Below, in pieces: positions 5,375-48,351 of a DNA stretch of 49,397 nt. Positions within the stretch are counted from its first letter, which is position 1; each line of letters begins with the position of its first letter. Both the position numbers and the translations under genes were made by a program. The notes below the pieces were generated by a model. That model was given only the letters and a program-made list of their open reading frames with translations. It ran no database searches and was not told where the DNA came from. The stretch lies in IMG/VR virus record IMGVR_UViG_648861009_000005; one strand, written 5' to 3'. This DNA is from a virus. Taxonomy: Duplodnaviria; Heunggongvirae; Uroviricota; Caudoviricetes.

Positions 5375-5540
5375 AATGGCAGCCTCTTGGTTGAGTATTA
5401 ATAACTCACCACCAAGGTTTTCCACGACCATAAGGGTGGTGAGGCGTACAGGGGTGGAAATACCGGTCAACCAAGAATCCGGCCAGCCTTGCAGCTGCCC
5501 TGCACGCCCCACCATAATCTGAATGTGGCTGTGCTTGACG

Positions 5541-5563
5541 CATAAAAAAACCGCCTGAGCGCG
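5541..5563 (-). terminator. Putative intrinsic terminator
   Basis: On the minus strand, hairpin accgc-gctcag-gcggt followed by T7. Confidence 0.4.
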
Positions 5564-5850
5564 GTTATGCGCTTGATTGAATTCCGGGTTTCCACGCCCG
5601 GCACCCGTTTTATGAGGTGCAGGTGCACTATAATTCCACCCGTTCTGGTTTTCAATAGCTACATTCAACATTTTCTCTTACCTTTCATCACCGAAGTGAA
5701 CTTTGTTGATGCGGTGCCTGGTGCCTCCAGGTGACGTTAACCAGTTAACAATTAACGCCGGATACAGAGAATCCACCCATAACACTGTTTTTGGTTTTAA
5801 CTGTTCCGCGTGCGCTTAGCCGCATTCACCGCATCACAAAATTCACTTTA

Positions 5851-5903
5851 AAAAGGGTGGCAGAGCAGTCACGGAGTAGAACTGATGCCACCAAAGACTA
5901 CAC
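5851..5903 (-). ncRNA. dicF: DicF-like small RNA
   Basis: Minus-strand sequence UUUGGUGGCAUCAGUUCUACUCCGUGACUGCUCUGCCACCC + U5 matches K-12 DicF as recalled, with paired substitutions that preserve the terminator stem. Confidence 0.65.
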
Positions 5904-6201
5904 ATGGGTATTGTGGCGGGGCTGTCACTTAAGCGTATGGTCAACCTGACAACCCGGTGCATTTTCTGGAGCAATGGAGGAAACCCCAGCCATACTTACC
6001 GCCGCGCCATTTCGCGGATTGCCACAACCGGAAGCGCACGATCGAATTAAATTTAACGACGACCTATACAGAGAGACTAACTTCGCCGGGCGCTTTCGTG
6101 TTATGCCCTGACTTTTCAGGGATATATCCTTTTTAGTAAACTGTCAGTGCCGGATTCTTATCCGTGTCCGGCGCACGCACTCTACCTCACCTGTGAATAA
6201 A

Positions 6202-8193: not shown

Positions 8194-9205
8194 AAAGGTG
8201 AAAACCGGCAGTTCATCCAGTAAGTCTGTATTGACCTGGCTTGCTGATATGTGCGGTGCCGATTTGTGTGCATACCCGTCTGTATCTGCACTGGCAGAAG
8301 TAACGGAACTGAACAAAAAGACTGTGCAGGACAGCTTACGACACCTGATGGAGATTGGGTTAATTGTTGATACCGGTGAGAGAAAAGGCAGAACAAAGCA
8401 AATTGTGGTGTACCGACTTATCGGTGTAGAAGAAAGTGTTGCCGAGCCTGAATACACCCAAAAACGGGAGTCTTTAAAGGTGGGTAAAATTGGTGCTGTT
8501 AATAAAAACAGTACCGAAAATGGTTATGTTTCAGCACAAAACAGACCCAAAAACGGAACTCTTAGCTGCATGGAAAATAACCAAAGACACCCAAATTTTC
8601 CATCAAAGACACCCAAAAACGGATCACGGAACCCAAAGGAACCCAAAGATCTAAACCCCACACATAACGCACGCGAGAGTGCTCCGACCAGTGAGCAGGA
8701 AGTTTTGTCGTTACAGGCAGCACCCCTTGTATTCCTGGATGGCCTGAGCGAACCCATCGGAAAATTTCCGATGACCGATAGCTGGTATCCGTCACGGGAT
8801 TTTCGACGACGGGCTGCGTTGTGGGGGATGGCTTTGCCGGAGACAGAATTTACACCTGCTGAACTTGCCGCCTTCCGGGACTACTGGGCAGCGGAGGGGA
8901 AAGTGTTTACGCAGATTCAGTGGGAGCAGAAATTCGCCCGTCACGTAAATCACGTCAGGGCGCAGGTTAAACCAGTCAGCAAGGGGGTAAACCATGCAGC
9001 AGCACCAGGTGGCACCGCATCACGGGCAGTTCAGGAAATTCGGGCAGCACGTGAGCAGTGGGAACGTGAAAACGGATTTATCAGCGACGGAAACGGTCTG
9101 GAAGCTGTGGGAACTCATGGGGGAGGTTTATTCGAACCGCTGGACCCAGAAGAACGGGGCCGCACCTTCGAAGCTCTGGATTGCACAGATTGGCGCGATG
9201 ACTGA
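8165..9205 (+). CDS. Replication initiator (O-like; N-terminal winged-helix, C-terminal DnaT-like region)
   Basis: Position upstream of the P-like gene; N-terminal wHTH-like segment SVSALAEVTELNKKTVQDSLRHLMEIGLI; the 3' end overlaps the P-like frame. Confidence 0.5.
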   Translation: MSIDALRWAKKVKTGSSSSKSVLTWLADMCGADLCAYPSVSALAEVTELNKKTVQDSLRHLMEIGLIVDTGERKGRTKQIVVYRLIGVEESVAEPEYTQKRESLKVGKIGAVNKNSTENGYVSAQNRPKNGTLSCMENNQRHPNFPSKTPKNGSRNPKEPKDLNPTHNARESAPTSEQEVLSLQAAPLVFLDGLSEPIGKFPMTDSWYPSRDFRRRAALWGMALPETEFTPAELAAFRDYWAAEGKVFTQIQWEQKFARHVNHVRAQVKPVSKGVNHAAAPGGTASRAVQEIRAAREQWERENGFISDGNGLEAVGTHGGGLFEPLDPEERGRTFEALDCTDWRDD

Positions 9206-14109: not shown

Positions 14110-14367
14110 ATACAGCGAACGCCATTGGTTTAGTTGGATATTTACTGTGCCGGACAAAAACGGTTTGCGGGGAAATCTTAGTTAAGTAGAATAACTGCGG
14201 GTGCTTGAGGCTATCTGTCTCAGGCATGAACACCAAAAGGCAGATAGAGAAAAGCCCCAGTTAACATTACGCGTCCTGCAAGACGCTTAACATTAATCTG
14301 AGGCCATATCTATGCGACACATAGAGATTAGCCTCTTACGGACCGAAAGGTCAAGGAGAAGCAGGCT

Positions 14368-14523
14368 ATGAAGCAGCAAAAGGCGATGTTAATCGCCCTG
14401 ATCGTCATCTGTTTAACCGTCATAGTGACGGCACTGGTAACGAGGAAAGACCTCTGCGAGGTACGAATCCGAACCGGCCAGACGGAGGTCGCTGTCTTCA
14501 CAGCTTACGAACCTGAGGAGTAA
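14368..14523 (+). CDS. hok: Hok/Gef-family type I toxin
   Basis: 51 aa MKQQKAMLIALIVICLTVIVTALVTRKDLCEVRIRTGQTEVAVFTAYEPEE, the canonical Hok/Gef sequence; not in the ORF track because it is below the size cutoff. Confidence 0.85.
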   Translation: MKQQKAMLIALIVICLTVIVTALVTRKDLCEVRIRTGQTEVAVFTAYEPEE

Positions 14524-14591
14524 GAGACCAGGCGAGGGAGAAATCCCTCGCCACCTCTGATGTGGCAGGCATCCTCAACGCACCCGCACTT

Positions 14592-14619
14592 AACCCGCTT
14601 CGGCGGGTTTTTGTTTTTA
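14592..14619 (+). terminator. Intrinsic terminator downstream of hok
   Basis: Hairpin aacccgc-ttcg-gcgggtt followed by a T-run. Confidence 0.55.
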
Positions 14620-14639
14620 TTTTCAACGCATTTGAAGTT

Positions 14640-15033
14640 NNNNNNNNNNNNNNNNNNNNNNNNNNNNNNNNNNNNNNNNNNNNNNNNNNNNNNNNNNNNN
14701 NNNNNNNNNNNNNNNNNNNNNNNNNNNNNNNNNNNNNNNNNNNNNNNNNNNNNNNNNNNNNNNNNNNNNNNNNNNNNNNNNNNNNNNNNNNNNNNNNNNN
14801 NNNNNNNNNNNNNNNNNNNNNNNNNNNNNNNNNNNNNNNNNNNNNNNNNNNNNNNNNNNNNNNNNNNNNNNNNNNNNNNNNNNNNNNNNNNNNNNNNNNN
14901 NNNNNNNNNNNNNNNNNNNNNNNNNNNNNNNNNNNNNNNNNNNNNNNNNNNNNNNNNNNNNNNNNNNNNNNNNNNNNNNNNNNNNNNNNNNNNNNNNNNN
15001 NNNNNNNNNNNNNNNNNNNNNNNNNNNNNNNNN
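14640..15033. other. Assembly gap (394 N) with duplicated flanks
   Basis: 14466-14639 repeats at 15034-15207 (one T difference). Confidence 0.9.
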
Positions 15034-15306
15034 AATCCGAACCGGCCAGACGGAGGTCGCTGTCTTCACAGCTTACGAACCTGAGGAGTAAGAGACCAGG
15101 CGAGGGAGAAATCCCTCGCCACCTCTGATGTGGCAGGCATCCTCAACGCACCCGCACTTAACCCGCTTCGGCGGGTTTTTGTTTTATTTTCAACGCATTT
15201 GAAGTTCTGGACGGTGCCGGAATAGAATCAAAAATACTTAAGTAGCGCGCAGGGATAAGAGGGATGGTCCCTTAAAGGGGAGAGCTAATTATCCGGAAGG
15301 ATTCTG

Positions 15307-16963: not shown

Positions 16964-17332
16964 ATGACCGAACGCATAGAATTTGTTTTGCCTTACTCGC
17001 CGACGGTGAACACTTACTGGCGACGCCGTGGCAGCACATATTTTGTATCAAAAGCCGGGGAGCGTTATCGCCGGGCAGTGGCGCTTATTGTTCGCCAGCA
17101 GCGACTGAAATTAAGCCTGTCCGGACGGCTGGCAATAAAAATTATTGCAGAGCCACCGGATAAGCGTCGTCGTGACCTGGACAATATTCTGAAAGCACCA
17201 CTGGATGCGCTGACGCACGCGGGGTTGTTAATGGACGATGAGCAGTTTGATGAAATCAATATTGTACGTGGCCAGCCAGTATCTGGTGGACGGCTGGAGA
17301 TAAGAATTACAGAGGTGGGTGTGCATGAATAA
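16964..17332 (+). CDS. rusA: RusA Holliday-junction resolvase
   Basis: 122 aa; PDKRRRDLDNILKAPLDALT and GGRLEIRITE match E. coli RusA as recalled. Confidence 0.85.
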   Translation: MTERIEFVLPYSPTVNTYWRRRGSTYFVSKAGERYRRAVALIVRQQRLKLSLSGRLAIKIIAEPPDKRRRDLDNILKAPLDALTHAGLLMDDEQFDEINIVRGQPVSGGRLEIRITEVGVHE

Positions 17333-18014
17333 CCAGTATTTACAGTTTGTTCGTGAGCAACTCATGATTGCCACTGCAGATCTCAGTGGGTCGACAAAAT
17401 GCCAGCTGGAAGCCTGGCAGGAAAATGCCCTGTTCGATACAGGGCGTTACAGACGCAAAAAAATTCGTTACCGCGATGAGGTAACCGGAAAAATGATCAC
17501 GCGGGATAATCCCCCGATCCAGGGTAAACAATCACTGGCGAAAGGCTCATCAATTGCGCTGGTCAGTCCTGTTGAGTTTGCAACATCATCGTGGCGGCGT
17601 GCTGTTCTGGAACTGGAAGAACATCAGAAGGCGTGGTTGTTGTGGTGTTATGGCGGAAACATTTGCTGGGAGCATCAGATCGCGATAACGCAGTGGGGGT
17701 GGAGTGAATTTAAAACTCAGTCCGGCTCCAGAAAAATTGCAGTGAAAACGCTGGAGCGTGTGAAGAAGTTGATCTGGCTGGCGGCACAGGATGTCAGAGG
17801 ATGGGTTACCGGGTGTGAGGTCTACCAGAGACAGGAGCTTGCCAGACTGTGTGGAGTTAAGCCTGATAACTGGAGCCATAATTATGCGAACTACTGGCGT
17901 GAGATGTGCGATATTTTTAAGCGCCTCGATAGAGAATCCTTGATTTGCTCCGTGAAAATAAGAGCGCAACAAAAAGCGACCTTTTCACGACGAGATATTG
18001 CAAAAGTCAATTAA
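17325..18014 (+). CDS. Q: Late-gene antitermination protein Q
   Basis: Position directly upstream of the lysis cassette and a terminator; lambdoid Q-family size; start overlaps the rusA stop. Confidence 0.75.
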   Translation: MNNQYLQFVREQLMIATADLSGSTKCQLEAWQENALFDTGRYRRKKIRYRDEVTGKMITRDNPPIQGKQSLAKGSSIALVSPVEFATSSWRRAVLELEEHQKAWLLWCYGGNICWEHQIAITQWGWSEFKTQSGSRKIAVKTLERVKKLIWLAAQDVRGWVTGCEVYQRQELARLCGVKPDNWSHNYANYWREMCDIFKRLDRESLICSVKIRAQQKATFSRRDIAKVN

Positions 18015-18080
18015 ATCGCGTATGTTTCGTATAAATCTGATATTTTGCCGATTTTGTACGTGATGGCAAAGTAAGAAAAA
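18015..18080 (+). promoter_or_regulatory. Putative late promoter (PR'-like) and Q-utilisation region
   Basis: TATAAAT -10-like element at about 18038-18044, between the Q stop and the terminator. Confidence 0.3.
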
Positions 18081-18424: not shown

Positions 18425-18738
18425 AGGCTTTTTTATTTGTGGTAAATGGGCGGCTGGTGGGTGTGGTGGTTGTTGCTTTCCCGTTGCTGAAAAAGAAAAC
18501 GCCAGACTGTTAGCCGGGTATCAGTTAGCGGGAGAAATTTTTTAAATACTTCACAATTCAGGCGGTTGACTGTTGTCTGGTTTGCGGGGAGTTTGTTAAA
18601 AGAAACTGGCATGGTGAATCCCCCTGTGCGGAGGGGCAATCAGCGAGTAGGTATATGGGATAATCGCGGATTCAGGTGCTGGTACTGAATTCACCGGGAG
18701 GCACCCGGCACCATGCAATGGCACATAGCGCCACTCTC

Positions 18739-18775
18739 CAGCCCCTCTCCGGAGGGGCTGTTTATATTGATTTTG
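18739..18775 (+). terminator. Intrinsic terminator
   Basis: Perfect 9-bp stem cagcccctc-tccg-gaggggctg followed by a T-rich tract. Confidence 0.5.
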
Positions 18776-18794: not shown

Positions 18795-19130
18795 TTATGG
18801 ACTTTGTTGTTTTAGCCCATAAGGACATATTTGCAGAGTGCAACGGTTATTAAAGCATTCATTCAATACGTTATCTGTATTTGTAGGGCATTCCTGGCTG
18901 TTTTTGATTAAATTCCAGAATGTTTTATTGAATGGTACTACGTTGTAAATGGTTACAGGTAGCACTTTGTTATTGAGCATGATACCTGTGTGAGTCAGTG
19001 TAAATATACTTTCAGGAGGTAAGAAAGCATCCGATTGATACCAGATTATTAATTTTATTTTACTCCATATGACTGAAAAAGATATTCCGCATGATGGCTG
19101 GATAACTGTATCAATCACAATCCACTTCAT
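18795..19130 (-). CDS. Hypothetical protein, AT-rich moron on the opposite strand
   Basis: 111-aa ORF with AAGGAA RBS in a low-GC island between Q and the holin; no recognisable domain. Confidence 0.35.
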
Positions 19131-19390
19131 TTAGTTTCCTTGTTTATGCCTTGCTGGTGATGTTCTGAAAAGTATAAATGATATTTTTGATTGTAAACCA
19201 TAGAGCAGAATTATTTTTCTGATGTTGTTTATTGTTTATTTAAATGCAGGGTGGTTTATATCTCGTCTTGTAGTTTATCCATGCATATCTGCTTGATGAT
19301 GAGGTTTTTATTTAAGGTATGGTTTTGTGTTTTTTCTGTATTACATGTCAGGTATTTTAAAGAATCATTTTTCAGATGGTGGAAAGAACC

Positions 19391-19579
19391 ATGGCATTTA
19401 AACACTATGATGTTGTCAGGGCGGCGTCGCCGTCAGATCTTGCGGAAAAGCTGACACATAAACTGAAAGAGGGCTGGCAGCCGTTTGGTAGTCCGGTGGC
19501 CATAACCCCTTATACCCTGATGCAGGCGATTGCAGCAGAAGGTGATGTGGTGGTCAGTGGTGCAACTGAGCCGGAGTGA
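19391..19579 (+). CDS. Hypothetical small protein upstream of the holin
   Basis: 62-aa ORF (MAFKHYDVVRAASPSDLAEKL...). Confidence 0.35.
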   Translation: MAFKHYDVVRAASPSDLAEKLTHKLKEGWQPFGSPVAITPYTLMQAIAAEGDVVVSGATEPE

Positions 19580-19886
19580 TACTACGTCATCGTACTGGCC
19601 CGGCATTCCAGGCCATAAAAGACGGTCTGGCAGTGGGACTAAATGCACTGACGCTGACGGATATTACCAAAAATGCAACGTATGGCGTTGAGATAGAAAG
19701 TCTGGTGCTGGAGATAAATGCACCGGCATCATCATAAAAAGTGAGCCAGTCAAATGGAAGGTATCGTTAAACTCACCGGTAGTGTCAGTGGGTCGTCTGA
19801 GACGCCTGCATGAGTTATCAGAGCCATCAGTACTTAACTGGTGGCTTTTTTATTGTTGTCAGCTTCCGGATAACGGGAGACGGGGT

Positions 19887-20102
19887 ATGTACCAGATGGA
19901 AAAAATCACAACAGGTGTGTCATACACCACGTCAGCGGTGGGAACGGGCTACTGGTTCCTGCAGTTGCTGGACAGGGTTTCCCCGTCTCAGTGGGCGGCA
20001 ATAGGCGTGCTGGGGAGTCTGCTGTTTGGGCTGCTGACATATCTGACTAACCTGTATTTCAAAATCAAAGAGGACCGGCGTAAGGCGGCGCGGGGAGAGT
20101 AA
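19887..20102 (+). CDS. S: Class II holin, phage 21 S-like pinholin with dual start
   Basis: 71 aa; [22 protein letters not shown]...[21 protein letters not shown] matches S21; Met1 and Met4 dual-start motif. Confidence 0.85.
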
Positions 20103-20106
20103 AGTG

Positions 20107-20997
20107 ATGAATAAAAAATATGAACTGGTTGTTAAGGGGATAAATAATTACGGGGATAAGGTTACTGTTACTGTGAAGTCGGAAGGTGACGGGCAAGCGT
20201 CGCTGTTGTTGCCAGATGTGGCGATTAGTCTTGACCGTACTGAAGGTGCCACGCTGGAGTTTTACGAAGCTGAGGCGAAAAAGCAGGCGAAGCAGTTTTT
20301 CATGGATGTTGCTGCCGGGTTATGTGAATGGAACGAACCGTTGCCGGAAAAGCGCCCCGTAATTTTAGAGGCGCAGGATGTGTTGATAACCTACAAAGGA
20401 AAGCTACCGGGAAGAATTACTTGTTCTCTGAAGATGCCGCCGTCAACACTGCGGTCAGAAAAAGATGATGTTGAATCACGTATTGAAAAACTGGAGAGCT
20501 ACGTCGTTGAGCTGAATAAGAAATGGTCGATATTGGTGCCTTCTGGCGATGAAAAGCAGTTTGCTGCGTTTGACGATTATTGTCGGAAAGTGATGAGCAG
20601 AAATCTCGCAGAGTGTTTCAGTATTCATAATGATAATTTCAGTGACCCGGAATGGGAGTGTAACCGGCCATCCTTTGTTGTATCCGGTGATGCTGGGAAA
20701 ATAACCATCTCAGAAAATGGGAAAGTAACACCTCCATCGCACCAGCACAGTGAGGAGCTCATTGAATTTGCCATTGATTACCTGAAGAACAATAAAAAGC
20801 AGGGGCTGATGAAGCGCGTTGGCCGTTGCATGGGATATCTTCAGGTAGCCGCTGAGATTGAAGCGCTGGCCAGTGGTGCTGATAAGGATGCAATTGTGCG
20901 GGAGGCTCTTCTTCGTGATTTTAATACTCCACCCTTTAAAAAAGGGCCGGCTTACTGGCTTCATCCGGGGCTGACTTATCTTAAAGTGCGTATTTAG
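20107..20997 (+). CDS. Hypothetical soluble protein (296 aa) inserted between holin and endolysin
   Basis: Clean ORF with no TM or signal peptide and no motif I recognise; lower GC than its neighbours. Confidence 0.5.
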   Translation: MNKKYELVVKGINNYGDKVTVTVKSEGDGQASLLLPDVAISLDRTEGATLEFYEAEAKKQAKQFFMDVAAGLCEWNEPLPEKRPVILEAQDVLITYKGKLPGRITCSLKMPPSTLRSEKDDVESRIEKLESYVVELNKKWSILVPSGDEKQFAAFDDYCRKVMSRNLAECFSIHNDNFSDPEWECNRPSFVVSGDAGKITISENGKVTPPSHQHSEELIEFAIDYLKNNKKQGLMKRVGRCMGYLQVAAEIEALASGADKDAIVREALLRDFNTPPFKKGPAYWLHPGLTYLKVRI

Positions 20998-21033
20998 TGG
21001 GCCAGGGACAGCGGCTGAATATTTAATATATCC

Positions 21034-21567
21034 ATGAACACCAAAATCAAATACGGCCTGTCGGCTGCCGTTCTGGCGCTGATTGCCGCTGGTGCGCCTG
21101 CGCCTGACATTCTCGACCAGTTTCTGGATGAAAAGGAAGGCAACCACACCACGGCATACCGTGATGGTGCAGGTATCTGGACCATCTGCCGTGGTGCCAT
21201 CATGGTGGATGGCAAACCTGTCGTTCCGGGCATGAAGTTGTCGAAGGAAAAATGCGACCAGGTTAACGCCATTGAGCGTGATAAAGCGCTGGCGTGGGTG
21301 GAGAAAAACATCAGAGTGCCGCTGACCGAACCCCAGAAAGCGGGGATCGCGTCATTCTGTCCGTACAACATTGGTCCCGGTAAGTGTTTCCCGTCGACGT
21401 TTTACAGACGAATTAATGCTGGTGATCGAAAAGGTGCCTGCGAAGCGATTCGCTGGTGGATTAAGGACGGTGGCAGAGACTGCCGTATTCGTTCAAACAA
21501 CTGTTACGGTCAGGTATCCCGTCGTGACCAGGAGAGCGCGCTGGCGTGCTGGGGTATCGACAGATAA
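21034..21567 (+). CDS. R: SAR endolysin (GH24 lysozyme with signal-anchor-release N-terminus)
   Basis: N-terminal weakly hydrophobic SAR segment GLSAAVLALIAAGA; E..D..T catalytic spacing (EGNHTTAYRDGAGIWTICRG). Confidence 0.85.
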   Translation: MNTKIKYGLSAAVLALIAAGAPAPDILDQFLDEKEGNHTTAYRDGAGIWTICRGAIMVDGKPVVPGMKLSKEKCDQVNAIERDKALAWVEKNIRVPLTEPQKAGIASFCPYNIGPGKCFPSTFYRRINAGDRKGACEAIRWWIKDGGRDCRIRSNNCYGQVSRRDQESALACWGIDR

Positions 21568-21723
21568 GCAGAATATTTTGCTGAAAAATGAGGAATGGCC
21601 ACGCGGGCGGATAACACGAAATCCTGCGAACTGGCGAAACGTAAGTGAATAAAAGTAAAAACCCCGTTTGTTGGCACCAAGCGAGGTTTTGTGTTTCTGA
21701 CCTTGAGTAAGGCAAGGGAGAAC

Positions 21724-21906
21724 ATGGCGAAGTGTAAACGAATTCTGTTGAGGTTGACTATGAAAAATGGCCTTGAACTGAAAGCGCCTGTAACTGATGA
21801 CATCAGCAGAGCACTGGCTTTTGCCATTAAGTGGGTGGCGGTCGGTGTTGCTGTGTCCCCGATGCTGTATGGGCTGGCAAAACTGGTCATTGCGTTGAAA
21901 TCGTGA
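21724..21906 (+). CDS. Small protein with C-terminal TM segment
   Basis: 60 aa; AGGGAGA RBS; hydrophobic tail [22 protein letters not shown]. Confidence 0.3.
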
Positions 21907-21920
21907 AGGGAGGATTAAGC

Positions 21921-22052
21921 ATGTCAGACAAACTCATAACGCTGGCGAAGATCCTCTGTGTAATTGTCGGCATTTCATTTTCACTAATGCTGGTTGCTCT
22001 TTTTCTTTCCATGGCCTGGATGATGTTGTCTTCGTCGGGGTTGCTGGGGTGA
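21921..22052 (+). CDS. Small single-pass membrane protein
   Basis: 43 aa; strong GAAGGGAGGA RBS; stop overlaps the Rz start. Confidence 0.4.
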
Positions 22053-22522
22053 ACATAAACCGAATGCTTTCCGCGTTTATCGTTATTCTGCTGGTGGCCT
22101 GTGGTGCGCTGTGGATGGCAACAGACCATTACCGTGATAACGCGATTACCTACAAAGCGCAGCGCGATAACAAAGCCAGTGAACTGAAGCTGGCGAACGC
22201 AACCATTACTGATATGCAGGTGCGCCAGCGCGATGTTGCTGCGCTCGATGCAAAATACTCGAGGGAATTAGCCGATGCGAGAGCTGAAAATGAAACTCTT
22301 CGCGCTGACGTTGCCGCTGGTCGTAAGCGCCTGCGGATCAACGCCACCTGTCCAGGCTCCGTGCGTGAAGCCCCCACCACCTCCGGCGTGGATAATGCAA
22401 CCGGCCCCCAACTGGCAGACACCGTTACACGGGATTATTTCACCCTCAGAGAGCGGCTGATGACGATGCACAAGCAACTGGAAGGGGCACAGGACTATAT
22501 CCGCACTCAGTGCCTGAAATAA
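22049..22522 (+). CDS. Rz: Rz i-spanin
   Basis: [14 protein letters not shown]...[33 protein letters not shown] matches lambda Rz. Confidence 0.85.
22275..22460 (+). CDS. Rz1: Rz1 o-spanin lipoprotein, embedded in Rz in the +1 frame
   Basis: [10 protein letters not shown] lipobox; [26 protein letters not shown] matches lambda Rz1. Confidence 0.8.
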
Positions 22523-34574: not shown

Positions 34575-37530
34575 TCTTGTTATTGACCTGAGTCTGGATG
34601 CGGTCCGTTTCGATGAGCAGATGAGCCGGGTAAGGCGTCATTTTTCAGGTCTGGATACTGACGCCAGAAAAACCGCAACTGTCGTTGAGCAGGGGCTGAG
34701 CCACCAGGCGCTGGCTGCACAAAAAGCAGGGATTTCCGTCGGGCAGTATAAAGCGGCCATGCGAACCCTGCCCGCACAGTTTACGGATATCGCCACGCAG
34801 CTTGCCGGTGGTCAGAATCCCTGGCTGATCCTGCTGCAACAGGGCGGTCAGGTGAAGGACTCCTTCGGCGGGATGATCCCCATGTTCAGGGGGCTTGCCG
34901 GTGCGATCACCCTGCCGATGGTCGGGGTCACCTCGCTGGCGGTGGCGACAGGTGCGCTGGTGTACGCCTGGTACCAGGGAGATTCCACGCTTTCAGCGTT
35001 TAATAAAACCCTGGTTCTTTCCGGTAATCAGTCCGGACTGACTGCCGATCGCATGCTGACGCTCTCCAGAGCCGGACAGGCCGCAGGGCTGACGTTTAAC
35101 CAGGCGAGTGAGTCACTGGCAGCCATGGTGAATGCCGGTGTGCGTGGTGGTGAACAGTTTGATGCCATCAACCAGAGTGTCGCGCGTTTTGCTTCTGCAT
35201 CCGGTGTGGAGGTGGACAAGGTTGCAGAGGCTTTCGGAAAACTGACCACTGACCCGACGTCGGGGCTGATTGCGATGGCGAAGCAGTTCCATAACGTGAC
35301 GGCGGAGCAGATTGCGTATGTTGCTCAGTTGCAGCGTTCCGGCGATGAAACCGGGGCATTGCAGGCGGCGAACGAGGCCGCAACGAAAGGGTTTGATGAC
35401 CAGACCCGCCGCCTGAAAGAGAACATGGGCACGCTGGAGACCTGGGCAGACAGGACAGCGCGGGCATTCAAATCCATGTGGGATGCGGTGCTGGATATTG
35501 GTCGTCCTGATACCGCGCAGGAGATGCTGATTAAGGCAGAGGCTGCGTTTAAGAAAGCAGACGACATCTGGAATCTGCGCAAGGATGATTATTTTGTTAA
35601 CGATGAAGCGCGGGCGCGTTACTGGGATGATCGTGAAAAGGCCCGTCTTGCGCTTGAAGCCGCCCGAAAGAAGGCTGAGCAGCAGACTCAACAGGACAAA
35701 AATGCGCAGCAGCAGAGCGATACCGAAGCGTCACGGCTGAAATATACCGAAGAGGCGCAGAAGGCTTACGAACGGCTGCAGACGCCGCTGGAGAAATATA
35801 CCGCCCGTCAGGAAGAACTGAACAAGGCACTGAAAGACGGGAAAATCCTGCAGGCGGATTACAACACGCTGATGGCGGCGGCGAAAAAGGATTATGAAGC
35901 GACGCTGAAAAAGCCGAAACAGTCCGGCGTGAAGGTGTCTGCGGGCGATCGTCAGGAAGACAGTGCTCATGCTGCCCTGCTGACGCTTCAGGCAGAACTC
36001 CGGACGCTGGAGAAGCATGCCGGAGCGAATGAGAAAATCAGCCAGCAGCGCCGGGATTTGTGGAAGGCGGAGAGTCAGTTCGCGGTACTGGAGGAGGCGG
36101 CGCAACGTCGCCAGCTGTCTGCACAGGAGAAATCCCTGCTGGCGCATAAAGANNNNNNNNNNNNNNNNNNNNNNNNNNNNNNNNNNNNNNNNNNNNNNNN
36201 NNNNNNNNNNNNNNNNNNNNNNNNNNNNNNNNNNNNNNNNNNNNNNNNNNNNNNNNNNNNNNNNNNNNNNNNNNNNNNNNNNNNNNNNNNNNNNNNNNNN
36301 NNNNNNNNNNNNNNNNNNNNNNNNNNNNNNNNNNNNNNNNNNNNNNNNNNNNNNNNNNNNNNNNNNNNNNNNNNNNNNNNNNATGCTGCCCTGCTGACGC
36401 TTCAGGCAGAACTCCGGACGCTGGAGAAGCATGCCGGAGCGAATGAGAAAATCAGCCAGCAGCGCCGGGATTTGTGGAAGGCGGAGAGTCAGTTCGCGGT
36501 ACTGGAGGAGGCGGCGCAACGTCGCCAGCTGTCTGCACAGGAGAAATCCCTGCTGGCGCATAAAGATGAGACGCTGGAGTACAAACGCCAGCTGGCTGCA
36601 CTTGGCGACAAGGTTACGTATCAGGAGCGCCTGAACGCGCTGGCGCAGCAGGCGGATAAATTCGCACAGCAGCAACGGGCAAAACGGGCCGCCATTGATG
36701 CGAAAAGCCGGGGGCTGACTGACCGGCAGGCAGAACGGGAAGCCACGGAACAGCGCCTGAAGGAACAGTATGGCGATAATCCGCTGGCGCTGAATAACGT
36801 CATGTCAGAGCAGAAAAAGACCTGGGCGGCTGAAGACCTGCTTCGCGGGAACTGGATGGCAGGCCTCAGGTCCGGCTGGAGTGAGTGGGAAGAGAGTGCC
36901 ACGGACAGTATGTCGCAGGTAAAAAGTGCTGCCACGCAGACCTTTGATGGTATTGCACAGAATATGGCGGCGATGCTGACCGGCAGTGAGCAGAACTGGC
37001 GCAGCTTCACCCGCTCCGTGCTGTCCATGATGACAGAAATTCTGCTGAAGCAGGCAATGGTGGGGATTGTCGGGAGTATCGGCAGCGCTATTGGCGGGGC
37101 TGTTGGTGGTGGCGCATCCGCGTCAGGCGGTACAGCCATTCAGGCAGCTGCGGCGAAATTCCATTTTGCGACCGGAGGATTTACGGGAACCGGCGGCAAA
37201 TATGAGCCAGCGGGGATTGTCCACCGCGGGGAGTTTGTCTTCACGAAGGAGGCAACCAGCCGGATTGGTGTCGGGAACCTGTACCGCCTGATGCGGGGCT
37301 ATGCGGAAGGGGGGTATGTGGGTGCTGCCGGAAGTCCGGCGCAGATGCGGCGGGCCGAAGGCATTAATTTTAATCAGAACAATCACGTGGTGATTCAGAA
37401 CGACGGTATCAACGGACAGGCCGGGCCGCAGCTGATGAAAGCGGTGTATGAGATGGCCCGTAAAGGTGCGCAGGATGAGCTCCGGCTGCAGTTGCGTGAT
37501 GGCGGTCTGTTATCGGGGAGCGGGCGATGA
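34555..37530 (+). CDS. H: Tape measure protein H (contains a scaffold gap and an artefactual duplication)
   Basis: Similarity to lambda H; the 991-codon ORF minus 230 N and the 184-nt duplication is close to the 853 aa I recall for lambda H. Confidence 0.9.
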   Translation: MSQPVGDLVIDLSLDAVRFDEQMSRVRRHFSGLDTDARKTATVVEQGLSHQALAAQKAGISVGQYKAAMRTLPAQFTDIATQLAGGQNPWLILLQQGGQVKDSFGGMIPMFRGLAGAITLPMVGVTSLAVATGALVYAWYQGDSTLSAFNKTLVLSGNQSGLTADRMLTLSRAGQAAGLTFNQASESLAAMVNAGVRGGEQFDAINQSVARFASASGVEVDKVAEAFGKLTTDPTSGLIAMAKQFHNVTAEQIAYVAQLQRSGDETGALQAANEAATKGFDDQTRRLKENMGTLETWADRTARAFKSMWDAVLDIGRPDTAQEMLIKAEAAFKKADDIWNLRKDDYFVNDEARARYWDDREKARLALEAARKKAEQQTQQDKNAQQQSDTEASRLKYTEEAQKAYERLQTPLEKYTARQEELNKALKDGKILQADYNTLMAAAKKDYEATLKKPKQSGVKVSAGDRQEDSAHAALLTLQAELRTLEKHAGANEKISQQRRDLWKAESQFAVLEEAAQRRQLSAQEKSLLAHKXXXXXXXXXXXXXXXXXXXXXXXXXXXXXXXXXXXXXXXXXXXXXXXXXXXXXXXXXXXXXXXXXXXXXXXXXXXXXXAALLTLQAELRTLEKHAGANEKISQQRRDLWKAESQFAVLEEAAQRRQLSAQEKSLLAHKDETLEYKRQLAALGDKVTYQERLNALAQQADKFAQQQRAKRAAIDAKSRGLTDRQAEREATEQRLKEQYGDNPLALNNVMSEQKKTWAAEDLLRGNWMAGLRSGWSEWEESATDSMSQVKSAATQTFDGIAQNMAAMLTGSEQNWRSFTRSVLSMMTEILLKQAMVGIVGSIGSAIGGAVGGGASASGGTAIQAAAAKFHFATGGFTGTGGKYEPAGIVHRGEFVFTKEATSRIGVGNLYRLMRGYAEGGYVGAAGSPAQMRRAEGINFNQNNHVVIQNDGINGQAGPQLMKAVYEMARKGAQDELRLQLRDGGLLSGSGR
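36153..36382. other. Assembly gap (230 N) with duplicated flanks
   Basis: 35969-36152 is identical to 36383-36566. Confidence 0.9.
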
Positions 37531-47767: not shown

Positions 47768-48351
47768 TGGCATTCAGAATGAGTGAACAAGCACGGACCA
47801 TAAAAATTTATAATCTGCTGGCCGGAACTAATGAATTTATTGGTGAAGGTGACGCATATATTCCGCCTCATACAGGTCTGCCAGCAAACAGTACCGATAT
47901 TGCACCACCAGATATTCCTGCTGGCTTTGTGGCTGTTTTCAACAGTGATGAGGCATCGTGGCATCTCGTTGAAGACCATCGGGGGAAAACGGTTTATGAC
48001 GTAGCGTCAGGGGACGAGTTATTTATTTCTGAACTCGGTCCGTTACCGGAAAATGTTACCTGGTTATCGCCGGAAGGGGAGTTTCAGAAGTGGAACGGCA
48101 CAGCCTGGGTGAAGGATACGGAAGCAGAAAAACTGTTCCGGATCCGGGAGGCGGAAGAAACAAAAAACAACCTGATGCAGGTAGCCAGTGAGCATATTGC
48201 GCCGCTTCAGGATGCTGCAGATCTGGAAATTGCAACGGAGGAAGAAACCTCATTGCTGGAAGCCTGGAAAAAGTATCGGGTGTTGCTGAACCGTGTTGAT
48301 ACATCAACTGCACCTGATATTGAGTGGCCTACGAACCCTGTCAGGGAGTAA
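47767..48351 (+). CDS. tfa: Tail fibre assembly protein Tfa
   Basis: Size and position match lambda Tfa; start overlaps the stf stop. Confidence 0.85.
48190..48351 (+). repeat. Direct repeat, copy 1 (tfa 3' end); copy 2 at 49235-49397
   Basis: About 160 bp with roughly 88% nucleotide identity flanking the methyltransferase gene. Confidence 0.8.

Follow-up and report, generated by a model that had tools for sequence, protein, structure and literature searches.

A YdfR-family gene lies between the holin and endolysin genes

The DNA analyzed here, 49,397 nucleotides (nt) of IMG/VR virus record IMGVR_UViG_648861009_000005 (Caudoviricetes), is referred to throughout as the window. It is a complete-looking lambdoid prophage, running from the integrase to the tail fibers, and is 99.9% identical to a prophage located between potC and potB in E. 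coli 2017C-4173W12. Its lysis cassette contains, between the holin and endolysin genes (S and R), an 891-bp open reading frame (ORF) on the + strand (20107–20997), which is the subject of this study. The ORF starts with an ATG at 20107, immediately preceded by an in-frame GTG at 20104, encodes 296 amino acids (aa), and ends with a TAG stop at 20995–20997. The upstream neighbor is an S21-type class II holin of 71 aa (19887–20102, +; Pfam Phage_holin_2_1, E 7e-33; 'class II holin family protein' in RefSeq), whose TAA stop at 20100–20102 is separated from the ATG by four nucleotides (AGTG), with a GGAG ~10 nt 5′ of the ATG. Downstream, a 36-nt gap leads to the ATG at 21034 of a lysozyme-type endolysin of 177 aa (21034–21567, +; Pfam Phage_lysozyme, E 2e-24; phrog_7). 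The Gly/Ala-rich hydrophobic N-terminus of its predicted sequence is consistent with a signal-arrest-release (SAR) endolysin.

A preliminary description of this locus had placed an 891-bp gene in the same tightly packed, co-oriented position, with the correct spacing to the endolysin and a start 5 nt, not the actual 4 nt, after the holin stop. Its account of composition holds: the GC content is 46.2%, compared to 54.2% in the holin and 54.5% in the lysozyme gene, and at third codon positions 46.8%, compared to 68% and 60%, respectively. The product was likewise correctly described as soluble, being a 33-kDa protein of pI 5.95 that lacks any hydrophobic segment (maximum KD19 0.75).

The same description recognized no motif in the protein, and here the result is different. 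Residues 1–100 match Pfam DUF1327 (PF07041) with 137.9 bits against a cut-off of 25 (E 1.3e-40), covering positions 1–88 of the 93-position profile, and phrog_1085, labeled 'unknown function', is matched end to end (296/296, E 7.6e-190). The exact 296-aa protein is found on at least 1000 public contigs under the labels 'hypothetical protein' or 'YdfR family protein'. In the Qin prophage of E. coli K-12, ydfR (b1555, P76160, 103 aa) sits in the same slot and orientation, in the order essQ-ydfR-rrrQ-rzpQ. Membership of the YdfR (DUF1327) family is thus near certain and, as a kind of element, the gene is already known: it belongs to a named family of unknown function.

Counts in 5426 complete E. 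coli genomes, approximate because they were made at megablast sensitivity, put this holin type at 8950 places in 2466 genomes, any YdfR-family DNA at 6175 places in 2703 genomes (about half), and the C-terminal third of this gene at 952 places in 777 genomes. A single genome has up to eight YdfR-family copies. Among 434 phage records with this holin, 106 have a YdfR-like protein, and in the K-12 prophage DLP12, essD (S) and rrrD (R) abut directly with no gene between them, which identifies the YdfR-family gene as a dispensable accessory, yet a very frequent occupant of the S-R slot. The comparison with related prophages therefore bears out the suggestion of an accessory insert but not that of an unusual gene, and at these frequencies the gene comes close to being a known cassette component common among relatives. 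The usual E. coli form has ~112 aa and is head-only, as defined below; the long form found here is a minority. A scan of genome contigs with a single peptide pattern retrieved only three loci.

Domain architecture of the full-length protein

We derived the architecture from alignments of the length classes (103–333 aa) and an AlphaFold2 (AF2) model with a mean predicted local distance difference test score (pLDDT) of 69.5; an earlier AF2 model built from E. coli sequences only (pLDDT 54) was too weak for use. The N-terminal head, or DUF1327 core (aa 1–75; 20107–20331, +), is predicted to consist of three strands and a long helix (pLDDT 72–92) and is acidic, with a pI of 4.8. By BLASTP, it is 47% identical to residues 1–74 of K-12 YdfR. 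There are at least three divergent allelic types of head, which have been exchanged among genes that are alike in other respects, and the ratio of nonsynonymous to synonymous substitution rates (dN/dS) within one type is 0.5–0.8. The head is followed by a linker (aa 76–118; 20332–20460, +) that is predicted to be disordered (pLDDT <50), has a dN/dS of 0.29–0.53, and is well conserved among E. coli variants (PEKRPxILEAQDVLITYKGKLPGRITxSLKMPP). A helical hairpin or coiled-coil segment (aa 119–172; 20461–20622, +), where AF2 places helices at 112–146 and 149–172 (pLDDT 50–65), is the region in which relatives carry variable, mosaic inserts. A short, acidic spacer (aa 173–187) leads to the C-terminal module, or C-module (aa 185–296; 20659–20994, +), which is predicted to contain three short strands and four helices (pLDDT 72–96) and is basic, with a pI of 9.1.

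Eleven C-module residues are invariant across all clades: L226, G239, R240, L245, Q246, A248, P276, K278, W284, P287, and Y291. The module has no Pfam family, and inspection by eye found no catalytic motif (HEPN-like R-x4-6-H or nuclease) conserved across the E. coli and Salmonella clades. Head and C-module both combine three strands with a helix, and an internal duplication was considered; it was rejected, as hhalign detects no profile similarity between them.

The C-terminal module is a genuine domain overlooked by annotation

The dN/dS of the gene is below 1, and its last 112 codons give 0.16–0.37 against four relatives at synonymous distances (dS) of 0.16–1.2. Because the frame is open, dN/dS is low, stand-alone versions exist, and a Salmonella clade shares it, the C-module is a genuine protein domain under purifying selection. 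A 145-aa reverse-strand ORF (20710–21147) was dismissed, the + frame being the one under selection.

The stand-alone versions are proteins of 185–213 aa. In Shiga toxin (Stx)-type prophages, the order is S, a 213-aa hairpin-plus-C-module gene, a 75-aa DUF1327 gene, and R, an arrangement that represents gene fission with a permuted order. That head and C-module occur there as separate, permuted genes identifies them as real units. The short YdfR forms break off at codon ~112, within the linker. Those of YYZ-2008 and H-19B match the window to nt 20442, continue with ~53 unrelated nt, and match again from 21028; we read the short forms as deletion derivatives of the long one. K-12 YdfR consists of the head plus an unrelated basic tail.

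RefSeq treats the intact long copy differently. In NZ_CP030768.1, which carries the identical gene, only codons 1–112 are annotated, as 'YdfR family protein, incomplete, missing C-terminus', and the interval corresponding to window 20443–21033 is left without annotation by the Prokaryotic Genome Annotation Pipeline (PGAP). No feature is recorded at most of the 952 places where complete E. coli genomes contain the C-module, while 296-aa products are annotated in other records. The flag of a truncated pseudogene on intact long copies is wrong, and the error is systematic.

A Salmonella clade shares the two-domain plan

The family has a narrow range: 1.84 billion proteins, searched exhaustively with a profile, yielded only 38 representatives. 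The divergent representatives are Salmonella enterica prophage proteins of 189–338 aa (for instance P0126, P0159, and P0195), listed as hypothetical proteins. They share the DUF1327-like head, the variable helical middle, the C-module, and a late-operon neighborhood with the gene in the window, as well as a common C-module motif (GRCMG-LQ-AAEIEA...D-PPFK...W-PG-YLK-R). They differ in being only ~30% identical overall and in receiving no Pfam call. The C-module, ~42% identical, aligns between E. coli and Salmonella profiles with an hhalign probability of 99.9% (E 1.5e-37), and the head with 85.6% (E 5.5e-6). Since the Salmonella clade has the same two-domain plan, the long form is, on these comparisons, ancestral. 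By this outgroup argument, K-12 YdfR is a truncated relic, and experiments on it may understate the full protein.

The genomic position differs as well. The Salmonella genes occupy the stretch between Q and the holin gene instead of the holin-endolysin interval, and S overlaps R at these loci. They sit among ParE or HicAB toxin-antitoxin genes, with a reverse-strand gene between the YdfR relative and the downstream holin, which belongs to either the Phage_holin_2_1 or the Phage_holin_2_3 family. Two holin families and the Q-holin position argue against a specific holin partner; what the family follows is the 5′ end of the late operon, and neither the S-R slot nor any one holin.

A convergent ORF of ~104 aa was seen on the reverse strand directly downstream of the YdfR-like gene in many relatives, at loci of E. 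coli and of the Salmonella clade alike (L011:1307–1621(−), L019:4805–5122(−), and L012:2378–2713(−)). Its products share 42–55% aa identity and the motif EELSYLDCxW..YA.TQKERLF and have no Pfam family. This gene, of which a search of the window found no copy, could be a partner or regulator of the YdfR-like gene.

Late, Q-dependent expression is predicted

Upstream of the cassette, the antiterminator Q gene (17326–18015, +; from the RefSeq annotation of the near-identical prophage), whose product would control the late operon that includes the YdfR-family gene, is followed by a match to Rfam STnc100 (18580–18769, +; 132 bits against a gathering score of 47), which ends in a terminator-like hairpin at 18739–18760. 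From its position after Q, this region is probably the late-promoter leader RNA of lambdoid type with its terminator. The terminator scan placed a second terminator-like hairpin, with a 12-bp stem and a T run, just upstream of the holin gene (19820–19848, +). We found no sigma70-like promoter on the + strand between 17.5 and 23.5 kb, and K-12 ydfR yields almost no RNA-seq reads in normal growth (PMC13232886). With no promoter-like site of its own, hairpins upstream, a leader after Q, and a silent K-12 counterpart, the YdfR-family gene is expected to depend on Q and to be expressed late, at the same time as the lysis genes.

A tentative link to RNase E

Searches with the 296-aa protein named no function. 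NCBIfam returned no meaningful family; all nine PHROG matches are labeled 'unknown function', and none falls in the lysis category; the only PADLOC-DB match, PbeC (E 0.018, 11 bits), lies in the coiled-coil segment at 119–182 and is coiled-coil noise. Foldseek, which the preliminary description had proposed as a check, found no match in PDB or BFVD at E ≤ 1e-3, and a profile search against PDB sequences found nothing. The roles it had floated (lysis regulator, anti-defense, superinfection exclusion, abortive infection) gained no support from these searches, and its caution that function is not readable from sequence still holds.

The literature on ydfR contains one functional study; other mentions are list entries, one from a screen for survival under streptomycin and one from an in vitro transcription screen with sigma-S. 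In the functional study, K-12 YdfR was recovered in a two-hybrid screen and its residues 1–72 are enough for it to interact with the catalytic, N-terminal half of RNase E (PMC13232886). The K-12 head is positive with RNase E 1–597 in the bacterial adenylate cyclase two-hybrid (BACTH) assay, and Strep-YdfR co-purifies Rne1–598 and DNase-resistant nucleic acid, that is, RNA (PMC13232886). K-12 YdfR shares with the gene in the window the DUF1327 family, the slot, the orientation, and a related head, the region that binds RNase E; at 103 aa, it differs in lacking the conserved linker, the helical hairpin, and the C-module.

On this basis, the reading we favor, at somewhat short of even confidence, is that the gene encodes an accessory protein, cytoplasmic and made late, that attaches to RNase E through its head while its other parts add oligomerization and a second binding activity. 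The gene is carried by lambdoid prophages in E. coli, Shigella, and Salmonella, where it travels at the start (5′ end) of the Q-dependent late operon, and its product would appear only in the late phase of lytic growth, at the same time as the lysis proteins. To judge from its homology to K-12 YdfR, the head would most likely dock on host RNase E, the helical hairpin would probably mediate oligomerization, and the basic C-module could supply the second binding activity, for RNA or another protein. The assembled protein may thereby act late in infection as a modulator or adaptor of the host RNA-decay machinery, and not as a component of the holin-endolysin-spanin machinery. The weak phenotype of K-12 YdfR would be expected if that protein is a relic without the parts beyond the head. 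Family membership, architecture, coding status, dispensability, and distribution are established here; late expression, RNase E binding by this allele, and any effect on RNA decay are inferences.

Several observations weigh against this proposal. The RNase E data concern a different allele, 47% identical, and nothing beyond the head. In that work, the authors could not exclude a contaminant as the RNA carrier, the short-linker BACTH fusion was positive only with Rne1–597, and overproduction of K-12 YdfR altered few transcripts and left growth unaffected (PMC13232886). RNase E is highly conserved, yet the heads are of at least three divergent types with a within-type dN/dS of 0.5–0.8, a diversity not predicted by binding to a fixed host target. 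The head is also acidic, and the searches revealed no resemblance, in sequence or in fold, to regulators already known to bind RNase E (RapZ, RraA/RraB, T4 Srd, or phiKZ Dip). Finally, the constant linkage to pinholin/lysozyme cassettes could equally be explained by a role in lysis.

Proteins that bind the N-terminal half of RNase E include T4 Srd, a phage protein that stimulates host RNA decay, and the adaptor RapZ, which contacts RNase E and its RNA through different domains (PMC13232886). With a head that binds RNase E and a basic C-module, the two-domain YdfR could work along similar lines; the likeness is a works-like analogy only, with no sequence or fold similarity detected. A bolder, RapZ-like adaptor, in which the head sits on the catalytic half of membrane-bound RNase E and the basic C-module brings specific RNAs, so that late RNA decay is reprogrammed and K-12 YdfR is a disabled head-only relic, is in our judgment improbable. 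Such an adaptor might, for example, protect the long late transcript or set the holin-to-endolysin mRNA ratio and so the lysis time, and the convergent ~104-aa gene of the relatives could be its regulator. The entries that match the present protein from end to end, phrog_1085 and the NCBI 296-aa 'YdfR family protein', are catalog items without function or published architecture.

Alternative explanations

A conflict moron, acting in superinfection exclusion, abortive infection, or counter-defense from the moron zone of the late operon and diversifying in an arms race, would account for much of the evolutionary pattern: the GC content below that of the neighbors, the extreme mosaicism with several head types and many length classes (103–338 aa) in one species, the within-type head dN/dS of 0.5–0.8, the presence of up to eight copies per genome, the very narrow taxonomic range, and the ParE and HicAB toxin-antitoxin genes around the Salmonella copies. 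The expression context is harder to reconcile with it, since a gene with no promoter-like site of its own, terminators upstream, and a K-12 counterpart silent in normal growth would not be expressed by the lysogen. Moreover, no PADLOC family was matched apart from the PbeC hit, the protein has no catalytic or toxin motif, and overproduction of K-12 YdfR is not toxic (PMC13232886). We regard this explanation as unlikely. The lysis genes next door invite another one, a lysis-timing regulator, which would be produced in the cytoplasm alongside the pinholin, would delay or sharpen pinholin triggering, and might do so by binding the holin's charged cytoplasmic tail or by altering the supply of SAR endolysin. 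T4 RIII and P1 LydB are small soluble antiholin cofactors of this kind, cytoplasmic and made with the holin. YdfR resembles them in being cytoplasmic and co-expressed with a holin, but has no lysis-category PHROG match and varies across its family in position relative to the holin. At all E. coli loci seen, 4 nt separate the holin stop from the start codon, and a class II holin plus a Phage_lysozyme endolysin occur within ~0.5 kb at every locus examined, in Salmonella as well. A genetic screen cited in PMC13232886 ties K-12 ydfR to envelope integrity, although the phenotype of the deletion could be a polar effect on rrrQ. The Salmonella gene, however, lies upstream of holins of two families with a reverse-strand gene between, most copies of YdfR are head-only, many S21-type cassettes have no YdfR at all, and overproduction of K-12 YdfR gave no growth or lysis phenotype (PMC13232886). 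A lysis-timing role is, in our assessment, rather unlikely.

That the gene is instead a decaying pseudogene, a broken YdfR followed by a meaningless open frame, is what the RefSeq record implies by annotating codons 1–112 only and leaving 20443–21033 empty; most C-module places across RefSeq likewise have no annotated feature. This is highly improbable, given a frame open for 296 codons, a C-terminal dN/dS of 0.16–0.37 at dS up to 1.2, a C-module ~42% identical in Salmonella proteins and predicted to fold with pLDDT 72–96, and 296-aa products annotated in other records.

Implications for the YdfR family

What is new here is the ancestral status of the long form, an undescribed conserved C-module domain, the Salmonella clade in the Q-S zone, and a systematic RefSeq error. 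In about half of the complete E. coli genomes, prophages, Shiga toxin phages among them, carry YdfR-family genes in their late or lysis region, and the protein that has been studied, K-12 YdfR, is by the outgroup argument a truncated remnant of a two-domain protein, so the RNase E work bears repeating with the full-length form. The C-terminal module is a conserved domain for which Pfam has no family and PDB and BFVD gave no fold relative, and it goes unannotated at most of its 952 places; the RefSeq pipeline also labels intact long copies as pseudogenes. Should the link to RNase E prove true of the full protein, T4, T7, and phiKZ would no longer be alone among phages that target host RNA decay, and temperate lambdoid phages would be added to them.

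Other features of the window

The cassette continues downstream of the endolysin with the Rz spanin gene (22049–22522, +; Pfam Phage_lysis, E 2e-47), in which the Rz1 reading frame from the ORF list is embedded (22275–22460, +). The endolysin-Rz interval holds two small ORFs (21691–22052, +), one of 71 aa (phrog_1115, unknown function) and one of ~43 aa; in related phages, it carries an Ant antirepressor or a methyltransferase, making it a second variable slot of the cassette. Between Q and the holin, in the classic moron zone, a low-GC island (31–35% GC) contains the IraM anti-adapter gene (18795–19130, −). A 67-aa ORF at 19376–19579 (+) consists of DUF1737 only and is flagged as incomplete by PGAP. 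In Stx-type relatives (L005–L008), DUF1737 forms the N-terminus of a ~650-aa SASA-family esterase, and the ORF in the window is probably a remnant.

No tRNA genes were found in the window. Rfam matches at 5432–5906 (−), 14199–14370 (+), and 48110–48308 (+) comprise C4 antisense RNA, isrK, and DicF next to dicB, sok beside hokD, and IS009 near the tail-fiber end. The window exceeds the prophage in NZ_CP030768.1 by three segments, located at 1547–2249, 14466–15206, and 35969–36566 (~464, 570, and 414 nt). A direct repeat of 174–240 nt bounds each of them, and the third lies inside the tape-measure gene.
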